A stretch of 64,000 bases of DNA, taken from assembly GCA_000004985.1 (NCBI GenBank), contig GG738864.1; one strand, given 5' to 3'. Shown in pieces: positions 2,657 through 30,417 of the stretch (position 1 is its first letter; every line of letters begins with the position of its first letter). The notes beneath the pieces are model-generated. The model was not told the origin of the DNA. It saw nothing but the letters and a program-made list of their open reading frames with translations, and ran no database searches. This stretch comes from Naegleria gruberi. Lineage: Eukaryota. The position numbers were made by a program, and so were the translations under genes.

Positions 2657-3550
2657 ATGGTTTGTATTCATCTGCTGAATTTTATCTTTGCTTACACTTT
2701 GCTGTTTTAATATTAACACTAACCTCCTCTTCATACCCTATTGTTAATGTTGTTCTTCAAATTTAAACTATAATAGCCTCCAAAGAATCCACAAGAAAAG
2801 AAGGCCAAGAAAGTCGTCAAGACCTCTGGTAAGAAGATCCAAAAGGGTGACTTCAAGAATTTATTGGCTCCTAGACCAAAGGATATCGGTATTGGTAGAG
2901 ATTTGGGCGCTAAGATGAACTTGACTAGATTCGTCAAATGGCCAGTTTATGTCCGTCTCCAAAGACAAAAGAGAATTCTCTTGAAGAGAGTCAAGATTCC
3001 ACCAGCAATCAACCAATTCAGAATTGTTGCTGATAAGCCTTTGGCTCACTCTGTTGTCCAATTCCTTGCTAAATACAAGCCAGAAGATGAACAACAAAAG
3101 AAGGAAAGACTCAGACAAGCTGCTAAGGATAAGGTTGAAGGTAAGGCTGCTACTCCAAAGAAGAGTGAATCCTCCCTCATCCACGGTATTAACGAAGTTG
3201 TCAAGGCTGTTGAAAGAAAGCAAGCTTCATTGGTCGTTATTGCTCACGATGTTGAACCAATCGAACTCGTTTTGTTCCTCCCTGCTTTGTGTAAGAAGCT
3301 CGATATCCCATACGTCATTGTTAAGTCCAAGTCCAGATTGGGTCAATTGGTCCACATGAAGAACTGTGCTGCTGTTGCTTTGACTGAAGTCAAGAAGGAA
3401 GATAGAGATCAATTCGCCAAGATTGTTGAAGCCGTCAGAGGTGCTTTCGTTGACAGATTCAGAACTGTCAATACCAAGTGGGGTGGTGGTCAATTGAGCA
3501 AGAGATCAATCATCGAACAAAAGAACAGAATCAAGAAGCTCAAACAATAA
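2657..3550 (+). CDS. RPL8: 60S ribosomal protein eL8 (L7a). Exon 1 is ATG only (2657-2659), intron 2660-2776 (GTTTGT..CACTAAC..ATAG), exon 2 2777-3550
   Basis: The translation MPPKNPQEKKAKKVV...RFVKWPVYVRLQRQKRILLKRVKIPPAINQF...VIAHDVEPIELVLFLPALCKKLDIPY matches the eL8/L7Ae family throughout. An intron immediately after the start codon with a CACTAAC branch site is typical of yeast ribosomal-protein genes. Confidence 0.9.
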
Positions 3551-7937: not shown

Positions 7938-10601
7938 ATGTCTCTAATTGGCCCAAAGGATTTATCGGACCAATGCAAAATTCATATCAGCAAGGATTAT
8001 AACTTGCAGATTGTTAGCATTGTCATTTGCTTTCTGAGTATTATAAGTAGTGTTTTTGTATTTGCAGGAGTGTTTTTGTATAGGAAGGAGACCAAATCGC
8101 CTCGGATGAACATTTTAGCGTATGTATTAATCTAATTCTTCTCATCAACAACTTTATCTGTTTTACAATTCTTGTTAAATTTCATTATTTCACCAATGTT
8201 CTCTTTCAACAACAATATAACATCATTACGATAGTATAATCAACATTTTCGGATTCATCTATTGTTTATGTATTGAAATTGAATCAATAATTATCACATT
8301 GTGTAGGTTTTCGCAAAATGTAATAATACTAATTAATTAATCAACATGATTGTACATCATCAACTTTGTTCCGAATTCAATTCATCAAAAATCATCATCA
8401 AATCTGAAATAATACAGTGGGAAATGTCACTTACATTTATCCTCTATGCCAAATTCAAGCCTTTGTTGCAAATAGCTCTTCATTGTGTCTGAACACATTT
8501 TCTCTGTGTTTGACATTCTTCCTCTTCTACACAGTGGTTGTTAATAATCAGTATAGGAAATTGAAATCCCTCTACTCTAAACTCATTATCATCTTTTTAG
8601 TGCTTTGTTTCCTTGTCTCTATTCCATTCTTTGTATTTATATTTCCTGTTCCAGTTCCAAACTCTTCGAGATATGCAGAGCTCTATGGAAAATCATCGAA
8701 ATTGTGGTGTGATTTTGCCAATACCCCTAATCATTATATTAATCAAACTGATGATGCATCAATGAGTAGTTTTATTAGTCAATCATCACCTAAATTGCTA
8801 ATGACATCAACAATATCAACAATGGGAGAATTTTCGAGGAAGAATGCAACAGTGGCGGATCCTGTGGAAACTTATTGGGCTATTTTCTTTGAGATTGGAT
8901 TCTTTTATGTTCCAAATACTCTAATTCTGTTTGGGTATGTTTCCTATTTCATGACATGAATTAATATTTGGAAATTATAGAAATGTTCTCTTGTTTTTAG
9001 TGATTATTGTGAAAATTAGGAGGAATTCAACAATTCTTAAGAATCACCAACAGATGTTTTCATTGATGAGGGAGTCTTCTTCCAACACCTCTATTGTAGA
9101 TGATTCAGAGGTTTCTCAATCGGTTCCTATTAAAAATCCAAAGAGAGTTGGTTCTATGGCAAATATGAGTCCATCCAATAGGAGGAACACACCATCGGTT
9201 GGCTCTCTTGGAAATAATCTTTCATTTTCTAATGAATGTATTGATGAGGACAATCAGGAGGCAATAGATGAAGGAAGGCCATTACTGAATCCAAAAAAGT
9301 TTTTCACGAGTAATTCTTCTTCTTTAAATCTACTGGCAAAGAAGGGATCTTCAAATTCATTGGTTATTCCAAAAAGTGGCCCAAAGCCAAACTCAGTCAC
9401 ACAACCTTTGGAGGCATCTCTTCCTAGTACTTTTTCCTTCTTTATGTTTGGAAGTAATATCAAATATTCCACGTTAACACAGAGAGATATTGATGAATAT
9501 ATTCAATTTTTACATTCTCAATCTAGAACAGCCTTGTATTATATTGCCGTATTGACATTTAATTGGATTGTATGGATTGTTTCAAGGTTATGTTGGGAAT
9601 TTACACAATGTCAACAATCTGAGAGTCAATCTATTATCATTTTCGTTCTTTTATCGATAGCAGAACAATGTAGTGGACCTAGAATGAGTTCCATTCTGCT
9701 ATCTATTATTTTTGGTATTAGTGAGGATACAGTTTCACCATCAACACTTTTTGACATGTTCCAAGATGTAACATGTCTCAGATATTTTACGACATATTGT
9801 TCTGAGAGAGATTCAACAGTTTCTAACAAAGAACCACAAGAAGAAAAACCATTACCTATCGAATATGATAATTTGGTTTTCTTTTGGTTTGATATTTATC
9901 AACTCAAAGAGCTAATTATGAAGGAAGAGGAGACAGAGCAAGAATTGAGAAAGAAGAAAATATCTGCAAAGGTTCAAGATATTTGTGATCTCTACTTCTC
10001 TGAAACATCACAATTTAAAATCAATTCTGACATTGTTACGAATAAGGAGAAGAACTTCTTGAGGACAACATGTATTAATTATATTAAGGGAGGTGCTCAT
10101 GACGAATCTGATGACGAATATTCAGAGAGTAGTGATGTTGAAGGAGATTCAGCCTCAACTGTATCAGGAGCTCATGAAGGAGTTCCTAAAGAAGATTTGG
10201 TTCTTCTCAACACTTTGAAACAACCTTTAAAATCATCACTTAAAATTATGAATGATTTATTATCAGAATTTAAAACTAGCCCAGCTTTTGATGAACTTAT
10301 TAATATTTTGAGAATGAAAGCTGTTTCGCAAAGAAGAAGCTTATTCAAAGACATTATCTCCAAATTGGGAAGGTTATTTATTAACTGCTTTGGAATGTGT
10401 CAAGTGTTCTTTTTGTCCAGTAGACATGAAAGTGAAGTTGAAGGATATGAAACAGTTACAGATATTGAAAATAAGCATGTAGATCATGTTGATGTACAAA
10501 TCAAGGACTTGTGGTCCAAAGAATATTCGCAAGATGTTTTCGAATTCCTCGAAAGACTAAAGAATTTGAAATTGGATAATAGAAAGATTTGGGTAATTTA
10601 G
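7938..10601 (+). CDS. Seven-TM receptor-like protein with a C-terminal RGS domain (GPCR-RGS fusion). Proposed exons 7938-8119, 8476-8934 (alternative acceptor 8418), 8981-10601; intron 8935-8980 (GTATGT..TATAG, 46 nt)
   Basis: Seven hydrophobic helices (IVSIVICFLSIISSVFVFAGVFLY; FSLCLTFFLFYTVVV; LIIIFLVLCFLVSIPFFVFIF; YWAIFFEIGFFYVPNTLILFG+NVLLFLVIIV; TALYYIAVLTFNWIVWIV; IIIFVLLSIAEQ...ILLSIIFGI). They are followed by an RGS-like region (LRYFTTYCSERDS...NLVFFWFDIYQLKEL...AKVQDICDLYFSETSQFKINSDIV). The 8119 to 8476 junction is the only phase-consistent join found for intron 1 and remains uncertain. Confidence 0.55.
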
Positions 10602-10685
10602 TTAATATGTACTACAAAGTCAACAACAGAACACTCCACACGTTCTATTGTCATCTAATGTATTGATTAGTTAGTAATTTACAAG

Positions 10686-11761
10686 TTATTGTTTGAGTTC
10701 ATCAAAGTATGGATGTTTAAGGGCATCACTTGCACTTATTCTATTTGCAGGATTTATGACTAACATTCTTGATAGCAGATCCAATCCTTGGGAGTCTAAA
10801 GGTGTATTAATAAATTTTGATGCAAGCAAATTTACGTTCCATTTAGGGAATGTTGTTCTAAAGTTTGGTAATTGTGTTACAGCTCCATCAGAAGGTGTGC
10901 CTAATAATTGGAATACCTTAAATAAATGGTCAATTTCTGAATCGCTTGGGAATAATGGTTGTAATAAAACCAATTCAGCAAAGATACAACCAACTGTTTA
11001 AAGTAAATTAAAACAATAAACGAGTTCACTACTTACTTGACCATATATCTACTGAGGTTGAATATTTGTTTGCTCCCAATAAGAGTTCTGGGCATCTGTA
11101 CCACAAAGTAATGACTTCCTTAGTGAGTGTTCTGAGAGGAATATTGAATTCTCTGGCCAACCCAAAGTCTGCAAGTTTAATATTCCCCTGGGAATCTATC
11201 AGAATATTTTGTGGTTTGATATCTTTGAAGAGTTATAAAATAGGTTCAAAATGTGAAACAAACCTCTATGTAATACACGTCGTGCATGACAAAAAGCCAG
11301 AGCTTGTAACATCTGGAACATGTATTTCTTCACTAAAATTGGAGGGAAATATGTTTTAGTTTTTCTTTGTTGATCGATAAATACTTTAAGGTCACTATCT
11401 ACAAATTCAAATACTAAATTCAATTGATTGTTTTCGTGTATTACTTCAAAAAGTCTTTAGAATTTCAATACGAGAAATAGTTCAATAATTGAAACCTACC
11501 TTACAACACAAGGGTGACAAATATGTTTCAGCAAGGCAATTTCTCTCAATGTTGTGGATGGTACTCCTTCATCTTCCTTTTCTAATCTAATTCTCTTCAC
11601 TGCCACAACGTTATTATTTGTTAAATCTATGGCCTAAATGTATTTCAAGTTTAGATTAGATCAATAACAAGTAGAATCACAAAATACTGACTTTAAAAAC
11701 TACACCATATGTTCCTTCTCCAATCTTTTCTAACTTTTCATATTTGGCCAATTTACTTGAT
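10686..11761 (-). CDS. Cyclin-dependent kinase, Pho85/Cdk5-like (PSTTLRE variant of PSTAIRE). Exons (minus strand) 11761-11692, 11633-11500, 11454-11264, 11222-11037, 10993-10686; introns 58, 45, 41 and 43 nt. The start-codon exon is unresolved (candidate poly-Gln exon 11929-11844)
   Basis: Spliced translation: [18 protein letters not shown]|[45 protein letters not shown]|[27 protein letters not shown]...CHARRVLHR|[62 protein letters not shown]|IGCIFAEL...[21 protein letters not shown]...[10 protein letters not shown]. All junctions are phase-consistent. 5' splice sites are GTCAGT, GTAGGT, GTTTGT, GTAAGT. Confidence 0.8.
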
Positions 11762-12157
11762 CTGTGTAATGTAGTTGATTCCGTATCACAATCATGTTGT
11801 TGACAAATTATTCTTGTTATGTTATTAATTATTGAAACTCTACCCAAAGTTTGCTTGCTGTTGCACTTGTTGTTGCTGTTGTTGAATATGAATGTTTTGC
11901 GCGTAAATATTCGGTTGTTGTGTTTGCATTTTTTTTATTTGAATTTAAAAAGTTAGAAATTTTGGCGGCAACATTTAGAAAATACTAATTAAGATGACTA
12001 AGTGTTGTTAATATAACAATAAATGAAATTATTAATAGACTCTTTATTCTATCTTTACAAAAAATTAAAGGATTTAATAAACAATTAACGATTTACAAAA
12101 TGATAATACATATAATACGCCATAATGGTGGTGTGAAATAAGTTAAATAGGAAAAAT

Positions 12158-13650
12158 TTAAAGCTTCTTGGCAAACTCGACTTCTTCTTCGTCTTCCTTA
12201 AGGAATTCAATGAAATCTCCGAGACTCTTATCCTTGTATTCCTCAGATGTTGGATCATATTTAAATACATATTCATCTTCGGTTCCTTCCTTCAGTTTGA
12301 AAAGATCTTGATTCCACTTTTGTCCATTTTCTTCTCTCTTCTTTCTCAATCCACGTTGTTTTTCTTCAATCAAGTTCTTTTGTACGTTTGCATCTTCGAA
12401 TTCACTATCAGCTAAAGCTTTGGTGACCTTGTGCCAAACTCTACGAGATTCGTTTAATTTTTGACTGGCAACCTTCTTTACAAACCATGGAGCATGTTCG
12501 ACTTCCTTAGAATCAAAGAATAAGCTTTGTTTCTTGGTCTTGACACTACGGATTTGAACTTGACCAGTGATTGATCCATTAACCTTGTAGAGACGGTTTC
12601 CATCCTTTTTGATAGAACCCTTAATTTCATTGTCAGTACCAGATTTGAATTGAATCTTGGCAGAATAACCAGTACCTGGGCAAGAGATTTTCAAATCTTC
12701 ATTGATTTCAATACATTGAGTTCCCCATATTAATCCCTTGGCAACAACCCATGGGAAGACAATTTCATACACTTCGGTTTCTGGTTGGTTCAAGAAACGC
12801 ATTGTGATTGTACCTTCCAAGACAATTGATGCACTGTTACCATGGAATTTACTCTTAGGTTTTATCATGGCATTAACGAGGAGATTGTTTTTACGGTTCA
12901 TCAATACACAGGAAGCCATTGGGGGATGGTGAGATACTTGTTCCGCAATATATTCTGTTTTAGAAATTTCACCACTTGATGGATCCTTATGGATCCATTT
13001 ACAAGCAAAAACTTCACCAATAATTGGATTGTATGGTTTGGCTTGCATAATACCACCACGAGGTGTGTGGCTGGTATTACTCAACCACCATTTCAAAACT
13101 GAGATGAAACGTTGTTCTGGATCGAATGATTTGTGGGCACTTTAAAGAAACAAGAAACGTCATTATGTTGTATGTTTGACAGATTTAACACAAAAAGTTC
13201 AAGTGTCATTTTTCGGTTGATGATGAGTTGAAAAAGACGATTGGAGTTGAAAACAAAGTTTGTTGATAGATAAAGTAGATGATCGTGTCCAATAGATAAA
13301 GATCGTACGATTTTTTGATGAAGAAAATTAAATACTACAAAAGTTAAACTAATTACATACCTCAAGATATAATTTTGTGGTCTAACAAAGTAGGAAATAT
13401 ATTCAAGCATACTGATTGGAGCCAACAACGCGGATGGGAGAGAAATTCTGAACAAGTCTGCTCCGGTACGCAATTGTTTAACAACATCCATAATGATTGA
13501 TCCTCTGCTAATACCCTTTTCCTTCAAGGTTGATTCCTCAGCTTTAAATTGAGTTTGTCCATAATACTTTTGTTCTGTTGCGAGTTGTTCATCTGTTGGT
13601 TCGATATCCAAAATTTCGCTACCAGTTGTTGATGTTGGGGTGTCAGACAT
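12158..13650 (-). CDS. Oxysterol-binding protein homologue (short ORP, Kes1/Osh4-like). Exons 13650-13371 and 13139-12158, intron 13140-13370 (GTATGT..CTTTAAAG, 231 nt)
   Basis: OSBP signature EQVSHHPP. N-terminal LFRISLPSALLAPISMLEYISYF matches the Kes1 N-terminus. The two six-frame ORFs overlap at 13093-13096 and are joined in phase by the proposed intron. Confidence 0.8.
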
Positions 13651-28501: not shown

Positions 28502-30417
28502 ATGAAACAATCACTCTTGCTAGTTGTTGCTGTTTGTTCCGTGATGGCAATGTTATTGTCATCATTGGCCGTGGCACAAACTGAAAAGGATCATCTCGTT
28601 ACAACTCTCCCTGGTTATAAGGTATGTTTGTTTTATTGCATGGATGCTGATATGCTGAACCATTGACAATAATGCACGGGCAAATTATTCACAAATATTC
28701 ACTCTTGTATGAATTTTAATAATAATTAATAATATAGGATGGTAGAACACCACTTCCATTCAAATCATATACTGGTTATTTATTGGCAAATCAAACTAGA
28801 GGCCATTACTTGTTTTATTGGTTTTTTGAAGCTCAAACAAATAGTGACACAGCTCCTCTTGTTTTCTGGACAAATGGTGGACCAGGTTAGTAGTATAATC
28901 TGTTGTGGCATTCAATATTTTCTATGAAAATCATGCAATTTTTTTATGATATGGAACTATACAGGCTGTTCAAGTCTTGGAGGAGAAGCCAGTGAACGTA
29001 TGTATTTAAAAGTTATTATCAATTGAGGATCATTTAATATTATATAGATGGATTTTTACTTGTCAATGCTGATGGTGCTACTTTGAGAGAAAATCCATAC
29101 AGTTGGAATAGAAAGGCCAATATGTTGTACATTGAACAACCTATTGGTGTTGGTTTCAGTTATTCAAATCATACTTCTGATTATGGAGTTGTCAATGATG
29201 TGATGGCTGCTTCTGATATGGCTAATGCTTACAGAGATTTCATTAAGAGATTCCCAAAGTTTTTGAATAGAGATGTTTATTTGTCAGGTGAAGTAAGTAT
29301 ATTCACACATTGAATGAGATTGAATTTCTTACCAAATAATAGTCTTATGGAGGAGTTTATGTTCCAACTACTGCAGCTGAAATTATTCAAGGAAACCAAA
29401 ATGGACAAGTCCCATACATTAATTTGAAGGGTATTTTAGTCGGAAATGGTGTTACAGGTATGTTTACTGAAATGTTAAATTCCATAACAATTATTTCTAG
29501 ATGCTGAGGCTGACGCAAATAGCATTCCACCAATGATGAAATATCACAGTTTGATCTCTATCAAGTATTACGAGCAAGGTTTTGCTGCATGCAAGGGTGA
29601 TTTCTTTAACAATCAAAATGTTCCAGCTTGTGCTCAATTTTTGGACCAAAGTAACAATGTCATGGGTAATATTAACCCATACTACATTTATGACAGCTGT
29701 CCATGGTTGGGTATTACTTCTCAAAAAGCCAAGATTTCATTCCAAGAAAAGAAATTCAATGTTTTGAATGAACAAGGAAAGAAAGTCGATGTTCATCCAC
29801 TTTTCCAAATGTACAAACATGGTGGTTGGTCAAAGAGAGTTGCATTGCAATCAAATTCTAAGGTTAGAATGGAGTCTGACAGTCCATGTGTTCCAAATCA
29901 ATCCATTGCTAAATATTTCAAGAGATTGGATGTCCAAAAAGCCCTTGGTATTCAACACGGAACTGTTGATCCAAATGGTTGGGATATCTGTACCAATGCC
30001 ATTAATTATACTCAAGTTTATCCAAGTATTCTTCCATTCTATACAAAGTTGTTGCAACACATTAGAATTCTTGTTTTCTCTGGTGATGTAGACATGGTAA
30101 GTTCTCCATATTTCTAATTGTTTTTAATAATTACTAATTTTAATATTTTAATTCCATAGGTTGTTAACTCTTACGGAACTCAAGCTGCTATTGATAAATT
30201 GCAATTGCAAGAAACTTCATCTTGGAGAACTTGGGAACATGAAACAGTTACTGGAACAGTTGTTGGAGGATATATCAGAAAGTTTGGACCAGGCGGAAAG
30301 AATGGACAAGGATTGACCTTTATTACCATTAGAGGCGGTTCTCACATGGTTCCTATGGTGAAACCAGAAGCTGCTCTCACCTACTTTACTAAATTCTTGG
30401 ATGGTGATTGTTGTTAA
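28502..30417 (+). CDS. Secreted serine carboxypeptidase, peptidase family S10 (CPY-like). Seven exons: 28502-28621, 28738-28885, 28965-28997, 29048-29292, 29343-29457, 29501-30096, 30160-30417
   Basis: Signal peptide [26 protein letters not shown]10 motifs [25 protein letters not shown], active-site GESYGG, DxD (FSGDVDM), GGSHMVP. All six introns are GT(A/T)(A/T)GT..YAG and phase-consistent; intron 6 carries a TACTAAT branch motif. Confidence 0.9.

Follow-up and report, generated by a model that had tools for sequence, protein, structure and literature searches.

Where does translation of the CDK gene on the minus strand of this stretch of Naegleria gruberi DNA begin, and what type of CDK does it encode? 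The kinase core spans positions 11761-10686 of the window (the whole 64,000-nt stretch that was analyzed) and is complete after removal of four introns. From 11934 on, the kinase frame runs without a stop and has no ATG before the Gly-loop, and scanning it from that position confirmed the original prediction that the first kinase exon lacks an in-frame ATG. The locus corresponds to NAEGRDRAFT_83119 (XP_002678015.1, UniProt D2VD55), filed as NgruCDKAb in the source data of Medina et al. (2016), and its best database match is an N. gruberi protein of 99% identity, followed by proteins from N. lovaniensis (76%) and Willaertia (67%). The gene is already known and published, and the result presented here is ordinary biology together with an annotation fix. 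Comparison with the N. lovaniensis orthologue shows functional constraint (pN of 0.154 vs. a saturated pS of 0.777). The stop codon TAA (10688-10686, minus strand) lies 84 nt from the stop codon (10599-10601) of a convergent gene on the plus strand.

The kinase core is composed of exon 2 (11761-11692), with beta1 and the Gly-loop (GEGTYG at 11721-11704); exon 3 (11633-11500), with the catalytic Lys (VAVKRI) and the cyclin-binding helix PSTTLRE at 11561-11541; exon 4 (11454-11264), which covers the hinge and alphaD-alphaE and ends at the HR of the catalytic loop HRDIKPQN; exon 5 (11222-11037), with the catalytic loop, DFG (11169-11161), the T-loop Thr (TLTKE, 11130-11116) and YRCPE; and exon 6 (10993-10686), with the C-lobe and the stop codon, all on the minus strand. 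Joined together, these segments give an unbroken core of 295 aa, and the spliced CDK aligns to human CDK2 with E = 1.5e-107 and zero gaps at the four splice junctions, in agreement with the layout of exons and introns originally proposed. The KLAKY of exon 2 is kept in N. lovaniensis and N. fowleri and reads KLARY in Willaertia.

All four core introns, likewise on the minus strand, have GT...AG boundaries that restore the frame, and their junctions are confirmed by homology. Three of the four recur at the same positions in the N. lovaniensis orthologue: the 45-nt intron at 11499-11455 (GTAGGT...CTAAAG; donor GTAAGT in N. lovaniensis), the 41-nt intron at 11263-11223 (GTTTGT...TTCAAAG; donor GTATGT in N. 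lovaniensis) and the 43-nt intron at 11036-10994 (GTAAGT...AAACAG). The 58-nt intron at 11691-11634 (GTCAGT...TTTAG) is specific to N. gruberi; the N. lovaniensis orthologue lacks it and encodes the identical junction peptide, GVVFKAID, in uninterrupted DNA. The core is split by four introns of the U2-type GT-AG class, 41-58 nt in length.

For splice-site scoring we used a reference set of 21 introns, which may serve as a modest, local standard for the splice sites of N. gruberi. G+5 is invariant in this set and T+6 nearly so (C+6 occurs once), while +3 is A in 16 of the 21 introns and T or C in three; donors follow GTNNGT, acceptors are mostly TAG and the length mode is 38-63 nt. The four core introns conform to the G+5/T+6 rule and have the same T-rich, stop-containing composition. 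Indeed, the GTTTGT and GTCAGT donors singled out in the original prediction are used, by the 41-nt and 58-nt core introns, respectively, and the eL8 gene does have a GTTTGT donor (ATG|GTTTGT, intron 2660-2776). The lineage-specific GTNNGT preference that had been suggested from them was not supported: the 21 introns follow an ordinary eukaryotic consensus of the GTRAGT/GTATGT type, and T or C at +3 in 3/21 is too few to indicate a peculiarity of the lineage. Two sets of candidate non-consensus donors were discarded, namely GTTAAA/GTCAAA in OSBP, where the real intron uses GTATGT (13360-13140), and GTATTT in CSN5, where it uses GTAAGT (62848-62781). A rule that joined exons by the least open frame lost was also abandoned, as it picked false joins, and the ab initio intron scan was too noisy. 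The CSN5 and serine-carboxypeptidase junctions were checked by motifs of these proteins rather than by alignment.

With regard to family, the kinase had been described as Pho85/Cdk5-like, a placement that our comparisons contradict. Among PDB entries it scores best with human CDK2 and CDK1 (362 and 357 bits; 6GUE and 4Y72), and CDK5, at 318 bits, falls 44 bits below CDK2. Identity over 289 alignment columns is 57% to CDK1/2, 53% to CDK5, 50% to Chlamydomonas CDKB and 46% to Pho85, so the spliced protein is less similar to both CDK5 and Pho85 than to CDK1/2; over CDK1/2/CDKA as a whole, identity is 57-60%. In a neighbour-joining tree built from these 289 columns with 46 named references, the PSTTLRE proteins form a clade with 100% bootstrap that is sister, with moderate support (76%), to heterolobosean PSTSIRE CDKs. 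Both lie within the Cdk1-3/CDKA-type part of the tree, and the PSTTLRE clade stands apart from CDK5/Pho85, CDKB, CRK6 and CDK4/6. A Pho85/Cdk5-type CDK would account for an N-terminal stretch of 18 residues identical to human CDK5 and for the helix Leu (xxxxLRE) in common with the PSSALRE of CDK5; a 14-residue start and the helix Leu are what the Naegleria protein and CDK5/Pho85 have alike, whereas signatures, scores, identity and tree placement differ. The Naegleria kinase has the T-loop Thr, PE and DSEID, and not the Ser (YSAE/FSSE), PD and NDVDD/TNDEE of CDK5/Pho85, whose reference sequences we verified to be 100% identical to the PDB entries. Together with the lack of grouping with CDK5/Pho85 in the tree, this makes such an assignment highly improbable.

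We therefore regard the protein as a CDK of the CDK1/CDK2/CDKA (Cdc2) type, probably belonging to a clade of paralogues that is confined to Heterolobosea (Naegleria spp. and Willaertia); CDK-like proteins of N. fowleri have likewise been grouped with CDK1/2 (PMC13556005). The regulatory and catalytic residues are present, i.e., GEGTYG (Thr14/Tyr15), VAVKRI (Lys33), LRE (Glu51), HRDIKPQN, DFG and RTLTKE (Thr160), and judging from them the protein would be a cyclin-activated Ser/Thr kinase controlled by phosphorylation of the T-loop Thr and by inhibitory phosphorylation of the Gly-loop Thr/Tyr. With human CDK2/CDK1 it shares the GEGTYG Thr/Tyr, the catalytic Lys and Glu, HRD..KPQN, DFG, the T-loop Thr and DSEID, but it differs in PSTTLRE for PSTAIRE, TLTKE for TYTHE, YRCPE for YRAPE, SDSEIDH for GDSEIDQ and HRDI for HRDL, and in an added N-terminal extension of ~30 aa. 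Three of these features, PSTTLRE for PSTAIRE, Lys/Arg for His after the T-loop Thr, and YRCPE for YRAPE, characterize the clade, as does a further stretch of 10 residues. The PSTSIRE paralogues NgruCDKAc and NgruCDKAa, which also have orthologues in N. lovaniensis and Willaertia, are 58-62% identical to NgruCDKAb. They share with it QNIL, Leu at the position of the T-loop Tyr (TLT), ADSEID/SDSEID and N-terminal extensions, one of them poly-Gln, but keep His after the T-loop Thr and YRAPE, and have RAF where the PSTTLRE clade has REF/REY.

The helix departs from canonical PSTAIRE in two positions (A to T, I to L), with the catalytic Glu retained. The original prediction regarded this variant as unusual, which is correct in that only 4 of the best 120 matches among CDK1/2-type kinases carry it, all of them the heterolobosean orthologues, the four of which all keep PSTTLRE. 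It is not new, being the CDKB motif of Chlamydomonas, Volvox, Gonium and Arabidopsis CDKB2;1 (PMC8533097). Could the kinase then be a true CDKB orthologue outside plants? Its helix is identical to that of Chlamydomonas CDKB (CDKB1), Physcomitrium CDKBb and Arabidopsis CDKB2;1 and fits the CDKB motif P[PS]T[AT]LRE, but none of four other CDKB features is present (a beta4-beta5 insertion, DLG, in place of which it has DFG, YGKVY and DSE[LFY]QQLLHIF), its identity to CDKBs is 49-53%, and the tree places it as sister to the heterolobosean PSTSIRE CDKs and not with CDKB. We thus hold out scarcely any chance for a CDKB orthologue, and the absence of the other CDKB features, the low identity and the separate clade indicate that the PSTTLRE likeness is convergent. 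The CRK6 group of Medina et al. (2016), with microsporidian, diatom and trypanosome members, has P[SA]TT[IL]RE, T.TKE/T.TNE and PELLLGA in common with the Naegleria CDK, and Edhazardia CRK6 a further stretch of 12 residues, but at 48-51% identity and a separate position in the tree, the likeness is confined to scattered motifs.

As for the start of the gene, the ORF from the ATG at 11929 to 11844 joins the kinase in phase through GTAGAG...ACACAG, with removal of 82 nt, to give a product of 324 aa. Translation would begin at this ATG, and the probable exon 1 (11929-11844, minus strand; ATG, 28 codons and GG, MQTQQPNIYAQNIHIQQQQQQVQQQANFG) would encode a Gln-rich, in part poly-Gln, N-terminal extension of 29 residues. 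This exon would be joined to SSKLAKYEK... through a putative first intron at 11843-11762 (minus strand, GTAGAGT...ACACAG) that interrupts a Gly codon in phase 2 (GG|A), with CAAACTTTGG|ATCAAGTAAATTGG as the predicted spliced junction.

Several features point to this start. The ATG at 11929 is the first in a good, A-rich context, and at putative exon 1 the base composition changes from T-rich intergenic (T 0.44) to A/C-rich (T 0.16), with a coding score inside the range of real coding sequence. Six nucleotides upstream of the ATG lies the motif TTCAAATA (11943-11936, minus strand), which is also found in the N. fowleri and N. lovaniensis orthologues, 12 nt upstream of the ATG. With 18 copies on both strands of the window (12.8 expected), the chance of one falling within 30 nt of a given ATG is ~0.4%, and we did not find the motif upstream of the other candidate ATGs at 12123, 11974 and 11795. 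The absence of enrichment led us to reject TTCAAATA as a general promoter word. The end of the exon and the donor, TTGG|GT(A)GAGT, resemble the TTGG|GTGAGT of the N. fowleri and N. lovaniensis orthologues, and the pattern T[TG]GG|GT.?GAGT occurs only once among 6175 GT sites. Intron 1 of both orthologues splits a Gly codon in phase 2 in the same way, and the 82-nt intron appears to be orthologous to it. The donor may represent the GTGAGT of the orthologues with one inserted base and could pair with U1 in a bulged register, of which examples have been documented in humans (PMC4856993). The acceptor at 11762 scores 4.7 bits (91st percentile). Removal of the 82 nt leaves 31 residues before KLAKY, the length seen in N. 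lovaniensis, and the extensions of the paralogues are 22-28 aa long and partly poly-Gln, that of NgruCDKAa being poly-Gln. The start exon put forward in the original prediction has thus gained comparative backing from the motif, the donor context, the phase and the split Gly codon, and is probably right; that splicing uses exactly the 11843/11762 junction we favour by a small amount only.

The atypical donor and the exon-like composition of the 82 nt count against this junction. GTAGAG scores -0.8 bits, which puts it at the 72nd percentile of all GT sites, against a median of 9.8 in the reference introns, and it lacks G+5 and T+6 unless a bulged base is assumed, as in GT(A)GAGT; the G+5 rule of the reference introns therefore speaks against the donor in the form in which it was first proposed. 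The T content of the segment (0.28) is below that of all 21 reference introns (0.32-0.51), and it is A-rich like exons. It is open in the kinase frame, while 20 of the 21 reference introns have a stop in the frame of the downstream exon, and it is mildly coding-like in that frame, with a coding score above all 21 reference introns. The candidate N-terminal peptides show no significant similarity to the extensions of either N. lovaniensis or N. fowleri (p = 0.16-0.9). A match of RVS[IV] at the same length of 31 residues was judged to be due to chance, because the codons differ completely.

One way to accommodate these observations is to retain the ATG at 11929 and change the first junction, for which there are three options, all in frame. 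In the first, a GC-AG intron of 97 nt (11858-11762, ACA|GCAAGC...ACACAG) is removed, giving 319 aa and the junction ...GTGCAACA|ATCAAG; GCAAGC keeps G+5 and has A+3 and A+4 as in the reference set, where its C+6 is found once, but none of the 21 reference introns has a GC donor, and it is at 11843, not at 11858, that the donor context resembles the orthologues. In the second, a 31-nt intron (11843-11813, junction TTTGG|AATAATTTG) leaves 19 residues of the segment coding, in line with its coding score, which is +0.17 bits/codon in the distal 51 nt and -0.16 in the proximal 31 nt. Such an intron would be shorter than the shortest reference intron (38 nt), although N. fowleri mapping has used a minimum intron of 30 nt (PMC8296547). 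The third uses a tandem acceptor at 11756, 6 nt downstream, with an intron of 88 nt. AAG acceptors are used twice in the CDK gene, but the CAG at 11762 is the best acceptor, at 4.7 bits vs. 3.3 and 3.0 for the alternatives. We consider a different first junction from the same ATG unlikely overall.

Alternatively, the 82-nt segment could be coding throughout, with no first intron and a discrepancy of 1 nt (or of 4 nt, GTAG) at TTTGGGTAG due to an assembly error or a frameshifted allele. Deletion of one G, or of GTAG, at TTTGGGTAG joins the frames, and the true protein would then have an extension of ~60 aa and the true sequence would read TTTGGTAG or lack the GTAG. In line with this, no stop interrupts the 57 codons of the kinase frame that precede SSK, the segment resembles exons, and none of the 21 introns, in both composition and coding score, and a second gene in the window (41394-41321) has a similar 1-nt problem in its frame. 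Open frames do run through introns by chance, however, e.g., for ~75 codons in the OSBP intron, and the coding score of the segment is below 97% of true coding windows. An extension of 60 aa would also exceed that of every orthologue and paralogue, where ~4 (Willaertia) to ~35 (N. fowleri) residues precede the KLAKY/KLARY position, and the intact orthologue-like donor context at 11843 argues for a functional splice site and against a continuous exon, which we find quite unlikely. The one independent sequence, an ENA contig of 99.6% identity, ends at 11997, short of the disputed site, and exact look-ups and homology searches with locus-specific ORFs retrieved no further independent sequence of it.

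The first exon might also lie further upstream, at the ATG at 12123 with GTATTA, GTAAAT or GTTAAT as donor, with TTTGGGTAG serving as the acceptor (11840) and the 82-nt segment forming the 5' part of exon 2, like the layout with a short exon 1 of N. lovaniensis and N. fowleri. KLAKY would then be preceded by 28 codons, as it is in N. fowleri, and the junction would fall in phase 2, as it does in the orthologues. But at -3.2 bits the acceptor is at the 12th percentile, none of the donors, at -1.0 to -4.3 bits, has G+5, the ATG is just 35 nt past the OSBP stop codon and without the TTCAAATA motif, and the similarity of the peptide is not significant (p = 0.16-0.48), all of which renders an upstream exon very unlikely. 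Another alternative start, at the ATG at 11795 with a 56-nt intron (MILEKIGEG), was rejected, as it loses the conserved KLAKYEK and has a GTGATA donor scoring -7.8 bits.

A reading with neither splicing nor a sequence error would invoke non-AUG initiation at the TTG at 11847, which has A at -3 and G at +4, or +1 frameshifting at GGG-UAG-A. The geometry of the latter fits, since the ATG ORF has to shift by +1 to enter the kinase frame and a GGG-to-GGU slip would bring AGA, a frequent codon, into the A site, and the segment itself is open and mildly coding-like. But neither site is conserved, the orthologues having a normal spliced start; frameshifting lacks both a stimulatory element and a known precedent in the lineage; and the orthologue-like donor favours splicing over both. 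We regard either event as extremely improbable.

Lastly, the public RefSeq/JGI model has a different N-terminus. This model of 292 aa begins with MDVVKQLQ, and MDVVKQL is encoded at 13491, inside exon 1 of OSBP. Were the model correct, the MDVVKQL exon would be spliced over 1.7 kb to KIGEGTYG (13470/11730 junction). It does have the standing of the deposited model, but around the MDVVKQL ATG the OSBP reading frame and its own intron (13360-13140) are coherent, the GTACCG that would have to serve as donor scores -8.7 bits (8th percentile), and KLAKYEKLE, a stretch kept by all orthologues and encoded in frame at the locus, is missing from the model. The chance that it is right is next to negligible. 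Taken from within the OSBP gene upstream, and passing over conserved residues, the public N-terminus is a prediction artefact. The record (XP_002678015.1, D2VD55) would hence need an annotation correction, for a false, OSBP-derived N-terminus and for missing conserved beta1 residues, and a published CDK phylogeny already includes the flawed sequence. The 324-aa spliced product has no exact entry in a collection of 15 billion proteins, and no transcript-derived version of it was among the matches in our homology searches.

In summary, we propose, with a probability of roughly 70% for the account as a whole, that the locus encodes a heterolobosean paralogue of the CDK1/CDK2/CDKA type with four core introns, a start at the ATG at 11929 followed by an 82-nt intron, and a public N-terminus that is an artefact. 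These findings leave the understanding of CDKs or of splicing unchanged. PSTTLRE, usually a hallmark of CDKB, also marks a conserved, CDKA-derived clade in Heterolobosea, which calls for caution when CDKs are classified by the helix motif alone. A tentative and rather doubtful extension of this result is that Heterolobosea evolved their own CDKB-like specialist by duplication of a CDKA-type kinase, as a conserved paralogue with the PSTTLRE helix of the mitotic CDKB of the green lineage and a distinct (e.g., B-type) cyclin partner; decoding of the 82-nt segment by +1 frameshifting at GGG-UAG-A would be more exotic still and is much less likely. If the CDKB-like specialist were real, plants/algae and Naegleria would have arrived by convergence at a division of labour in which a PSTTLRE kinase works beside CDKA.

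The spliced protein found its best database match in a "predicted protein [Naegleria gruberi]" with 99% identity (EFC45271.1 / XP_002678015.1 / UniProt D2VD55, locus NAEGRDRAFT_83119), and Medina et al. 2016 (PMC4862756) had already entered the identical model as ">NgruCDKAb" in their source data. Orthologues occur in N. lovaniensis (76% identity), Willaertia magna (67%) and N. fowleri. CDK-like proteins of N. fowleri were placed with CDK1/2 in a 2026 paper (PMC13556005), whose "protein3, FDP41_0002611" is probably, by inference, the orthologue FDP41_000261. Purifying selection on the gene is strong (pN 0.154 and pS 0.777, the latter saturated, against N. lovaniensis). It is a known and ordinary CDK gene, in a window of clearly eukaryotic character (G+C ~33%), but its public start is wrong.

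Translation of five joined minus-strand exons (11761-11692, 11633-11500, 11454-11264, 11222-11037 and 10993-10686, with the TAA stop at 10688-10686) gave an uninterrupted kinase core of 295 residues. The introns between them are 11691-11634 (58 nt, GTCAGT..TTTAG), 11499-11455 (45 nt, GTAGGT..AAAG), 11263-11223 (41 nt, GTTTGT..AAAG) and 11036-10994 (43 nt, GTAAGT..ACAG). The frame was restored, and the alignment with human CDK2 (E = 1.5e-107) is gap-free at all four junctions. In N. lovaniensis, three of the introns lie at identical codon positions, with the donors GTAAGT, GTATGT and GTAAGT, while the GTCAGT intron is absent; there the GVVFKAID junction is encoded by contiguous DNA, which independently validates this splice. 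The predicted structure of the core is confirmed, and the gene-structure interpretation as a whole was largely correct. The Willaertia orthologue (L002, 3001-3965) has one 47-nt intron (GTATGT...TTTAG) after ADF, a site unused in Naegleria, pointing to fast turnover of intron positions in this clade. Two deposited orthologue models are mis-spliced: C9374_006232 of N. lovaniensis lacks 17 residues and CAG4710775.1 of N. fowleri lacks 31 (IGCIFAEL...FQLLG). Downstream, the stop of a convergent plus-strand gene (ORF 8991-10601) lies 84 nt from the CDK stop (10599-10688), so the 3' UTRs are necessarily very short or overlapping.

The original prediction had also seen a lineage-specific GTNNGT splice preference, citing a GTTTGT donor in the eL8 (L7Ae) ribosomal protein gene (2657-3547, plus strand). 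Indeed, exon 1 of eL8 is the ATG codon alone, and the gene reads ATG|GTTTGT into a 117-nt intron (2660-2776, GTTTGT...CTAAC...AATAG). Our reference set, 21 introns of the window plus CSN5, is biased to consensus donors, by which many members were recognised; position +5 is G in all donors, +6 is T in 20 and C in one, and +3 is A in 16, G in two, T in two and C in one. With A at +3 in 16 donors and T or C in only three, such a preference is not established. The acceptors are TAG (15), AAG (4) and CAG (2), and 17 introns measure 38-63 nt, three 116-117 nt and one 221 nt. Two seeming donor exceptions, in OSBP and CSN5, gave way to consensus donors once homology was used. In the CSN5/Jab1-like gene, which we take to be CSN5 from its likeness to the human sequence, a GTATTT donor was initially indicated by an open frame that proved spurious; the real intron (62848-62781, minus strand, 68 nt, GTAAGT...AAATAG) joins ...EERPWEK to the 19 residues that follow. 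A gene at 29038-30414 (plus strand), presumably serine-carboxypeptidase-like by its motifs, is interrupted by three or more tiny introns (29293-29342, 29458-29500 and 30097-30159), the first splitting the presumed catalytic GESYGG motif.

The deposited CDK model (292 aa) begins MDVVKQLQ|KIGEGTYG. MDVVKQL is encoded at 13491, within exon 1 of the upstream oxysterol-binding-protein (OSBP, ORP) gene (ATG 13650 to stop 12158, minus strand), from which the public model borrows its ATG. It requires a 1.7-kb intron with a GTACCG donor in the 8th percentile, and omits KLAKYEKLE, which is in frame at the locus and kept in all orthologues. We rejected this start; the N-terminus of the public model is artefactual. 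The OSBP intron itself (13360-13140, minus strand, 221 nt, GTATGT...TTTAAAG) is T-rich, and the frame of the preceding exon stays open in it for ~75 codons by chance. An independent environmental metagenome contig (ENA ERZ929261, k127_20307) is 99.6% identical to window positions 13846-11997 only (1850 nt, with 5 mismatches and 1 gap), ending 68 nt short of ATG 11929. On inspection by eye, the 161 nt of intergenic DNA that follow the OSBP stop contain three of the five mismatches, an indication of a second strain or haplotype. The N. lovaniensis assembly holds the orthologue locus twice, on 12-kb and 614-kb contigs with identical neighbours, so one copy is probably a haplotig.

As predicted, the first kinase exon lacks an in-frame ATG: its frame is open from 11934, with none before the Gly-loop. 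Non-AUG initiation or +1 frameshifting is scarcely credible to us, and we give ATG 11929 a probability of about three in four as the start codon. From there, a putative poly-Gln exon (11929-11844) would be joined to the core across an 82-nt intron (11843-11762, GTAGAG donor), an exact junction that we favour narrowly. Not a single GTNNGT hexamer occurs between the OSBP stop and exon 2. N. fowleri and N. lovaniensis have a common 20-nt exon 1 (ATGGAGC...GTGT[TG]GG, GTGAGT donor), followed by phase-2 introns of ~133 and 159 nt that split a Gly codon and have diverged interiors. The N. gruberi junction is likewise phase 2 within a Gly codon (TTT GG|...|A), the putative exon ends in exactly the TTGG of N. 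fowleri, and the donor, GT-A-GAGT, is GTGAGT with one additional base; among the window's 6175 GT sites, T[TG]GG|GT.?GAGT is found once, here. For human cells, 1-nt bulge registers have been described at 5' splice sites (PMC4856993); this donor may pair with U1 in a putative bulged register. TTCAAATA precedes ATG 11929 by 6 nt and the ATG of each of the two orthologues by 12 nt, and none of the other candidate ATGs has it upstream; it is not generally enriched (18 copies vs 12.8 expected), so the chance that it occurs no more than 30 nt from any one ATG is ~0.4%. The 11762 acceptor scores well (4.7 bits, 91st percentile), the resulting 31 residues ahead of KLAKY are as many as in N. lovaniensis, and the N. 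gruberi paralogues have N-terminal extensions of 22-28 residues, partly poly-Gln. The Willaertia orthologue begins at MQAHKLARY, without an extension.

Against this junction, the donor (tggGTAGAGtt) scores -0.8 bits vs a reference median of 9.8, in the 72nd percentile of all GT sites. Use of a different junction with this ATG (a GC-AG intron at 11858, one of 31 nt, or the acceptor at 11756) is unlikely but deserves some weight. The 82-nt segment is also A-rich and exon-like (T 0.28 vs 0.32-0.51 in introns) and stop-free in the kinase frame; at +0.02 to +0.13 bits/codon it lies above all 21 introns (-2.76 to -0.12, 20 with stops), as would suit one unbroken exon in which TTTGGGTAG carries a discrepancy of 1 or 4 nt. 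That reading is improbable, as the segment scores below 97% of genuine coding windows. An upstream first exon from ATG 12123 is more doubtful still, the rival GGGTAG acceptor being weak (-3.2 bits, 12th percentile). The 228 nt that separate the OSBP stop from ATG 11929 contain two short ATG ORFs (12123-11948, minus strand), MAYYMYYHFVNR at 12123 and MLPPKFLTF at 11974, each closed by a stop; should transcription of the CDK gene begin that far upstream, they would be upstream ORFs. An ambiguity of the same kind occurs at 41394-41321 (minus strand) in a repeat-protein gene, where two coding-looking frames meet at CCAGATAGGAAATTG: either 74 nt of A-rich DNA are removed as an 'intron' whose GTATTT donor is weak, or the sequence is one G short of an in-frame L.DREIVQACV repeat, which looks DUF4116-like to us.

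Lastly, the assignment as "Pho85/Cdk5-like" was wrong. PDB scores were 362 bits for CDK2, 357 for CDK1 and 318 for CDK5, and identities were 59-60% to several protist Cdc2s, 57% to CDK1/2, 53% to CDK5, 50% to Chlamydomonas CDKB and 46% to Pho85. We built a neighbour-joining tree (46 sequences, 289 columns, 200 bootstraps) from named references (Medina et al. 2016 source data, PMC4862756), database hits, and human CDK5 and yeast Pho85, the latter two verified to match PDB entries at 100% identity. The PSTTLRE proteins of N. gruberi, N. lovaniensis and Willaertia form one clade (100% support), sister to the heterolobosean PSTSIRE CDKs (NgruCDKAa, NgruCDKAc and orthologues; 76%) and separate from CDK5/Pho85, plant/algal CDKB, the "CRK6" group and CDK4/6. 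Residue hallmarks give the same placement: the T-loop Thr, PE and DSEID are common to CDK1/2 and the N. gruberi protein, whereas the Ser, PD and NDVDD/TNDEE of CDK5/Pho85 are missing.

The PSTTLRE motif (11561-11541, minus strand) is unusual among the best 120 hits, where PSTAIRE occurs in 89, PSTSIRE in 8 and PSTTLRE only in 4 heterolobosean orthologues, but it is the standard CDKB motif in Chlamydomonas, Volvox, Gonium and Arabidopsis CDKB2;1 (PMC8533097). The motif shared with CDKB is convergent, because every other CDKB hallmark checked (beta4-beta5 insertion, DLG, YGKVY, QQLLHIF) is missing and the proteins do not group with CDKB in the tree. Mildly intriguing are the atypical, exon-like putative first intron and the convergent PSTTLRE helix that a conserved paralogue of Heterolobosea carries.
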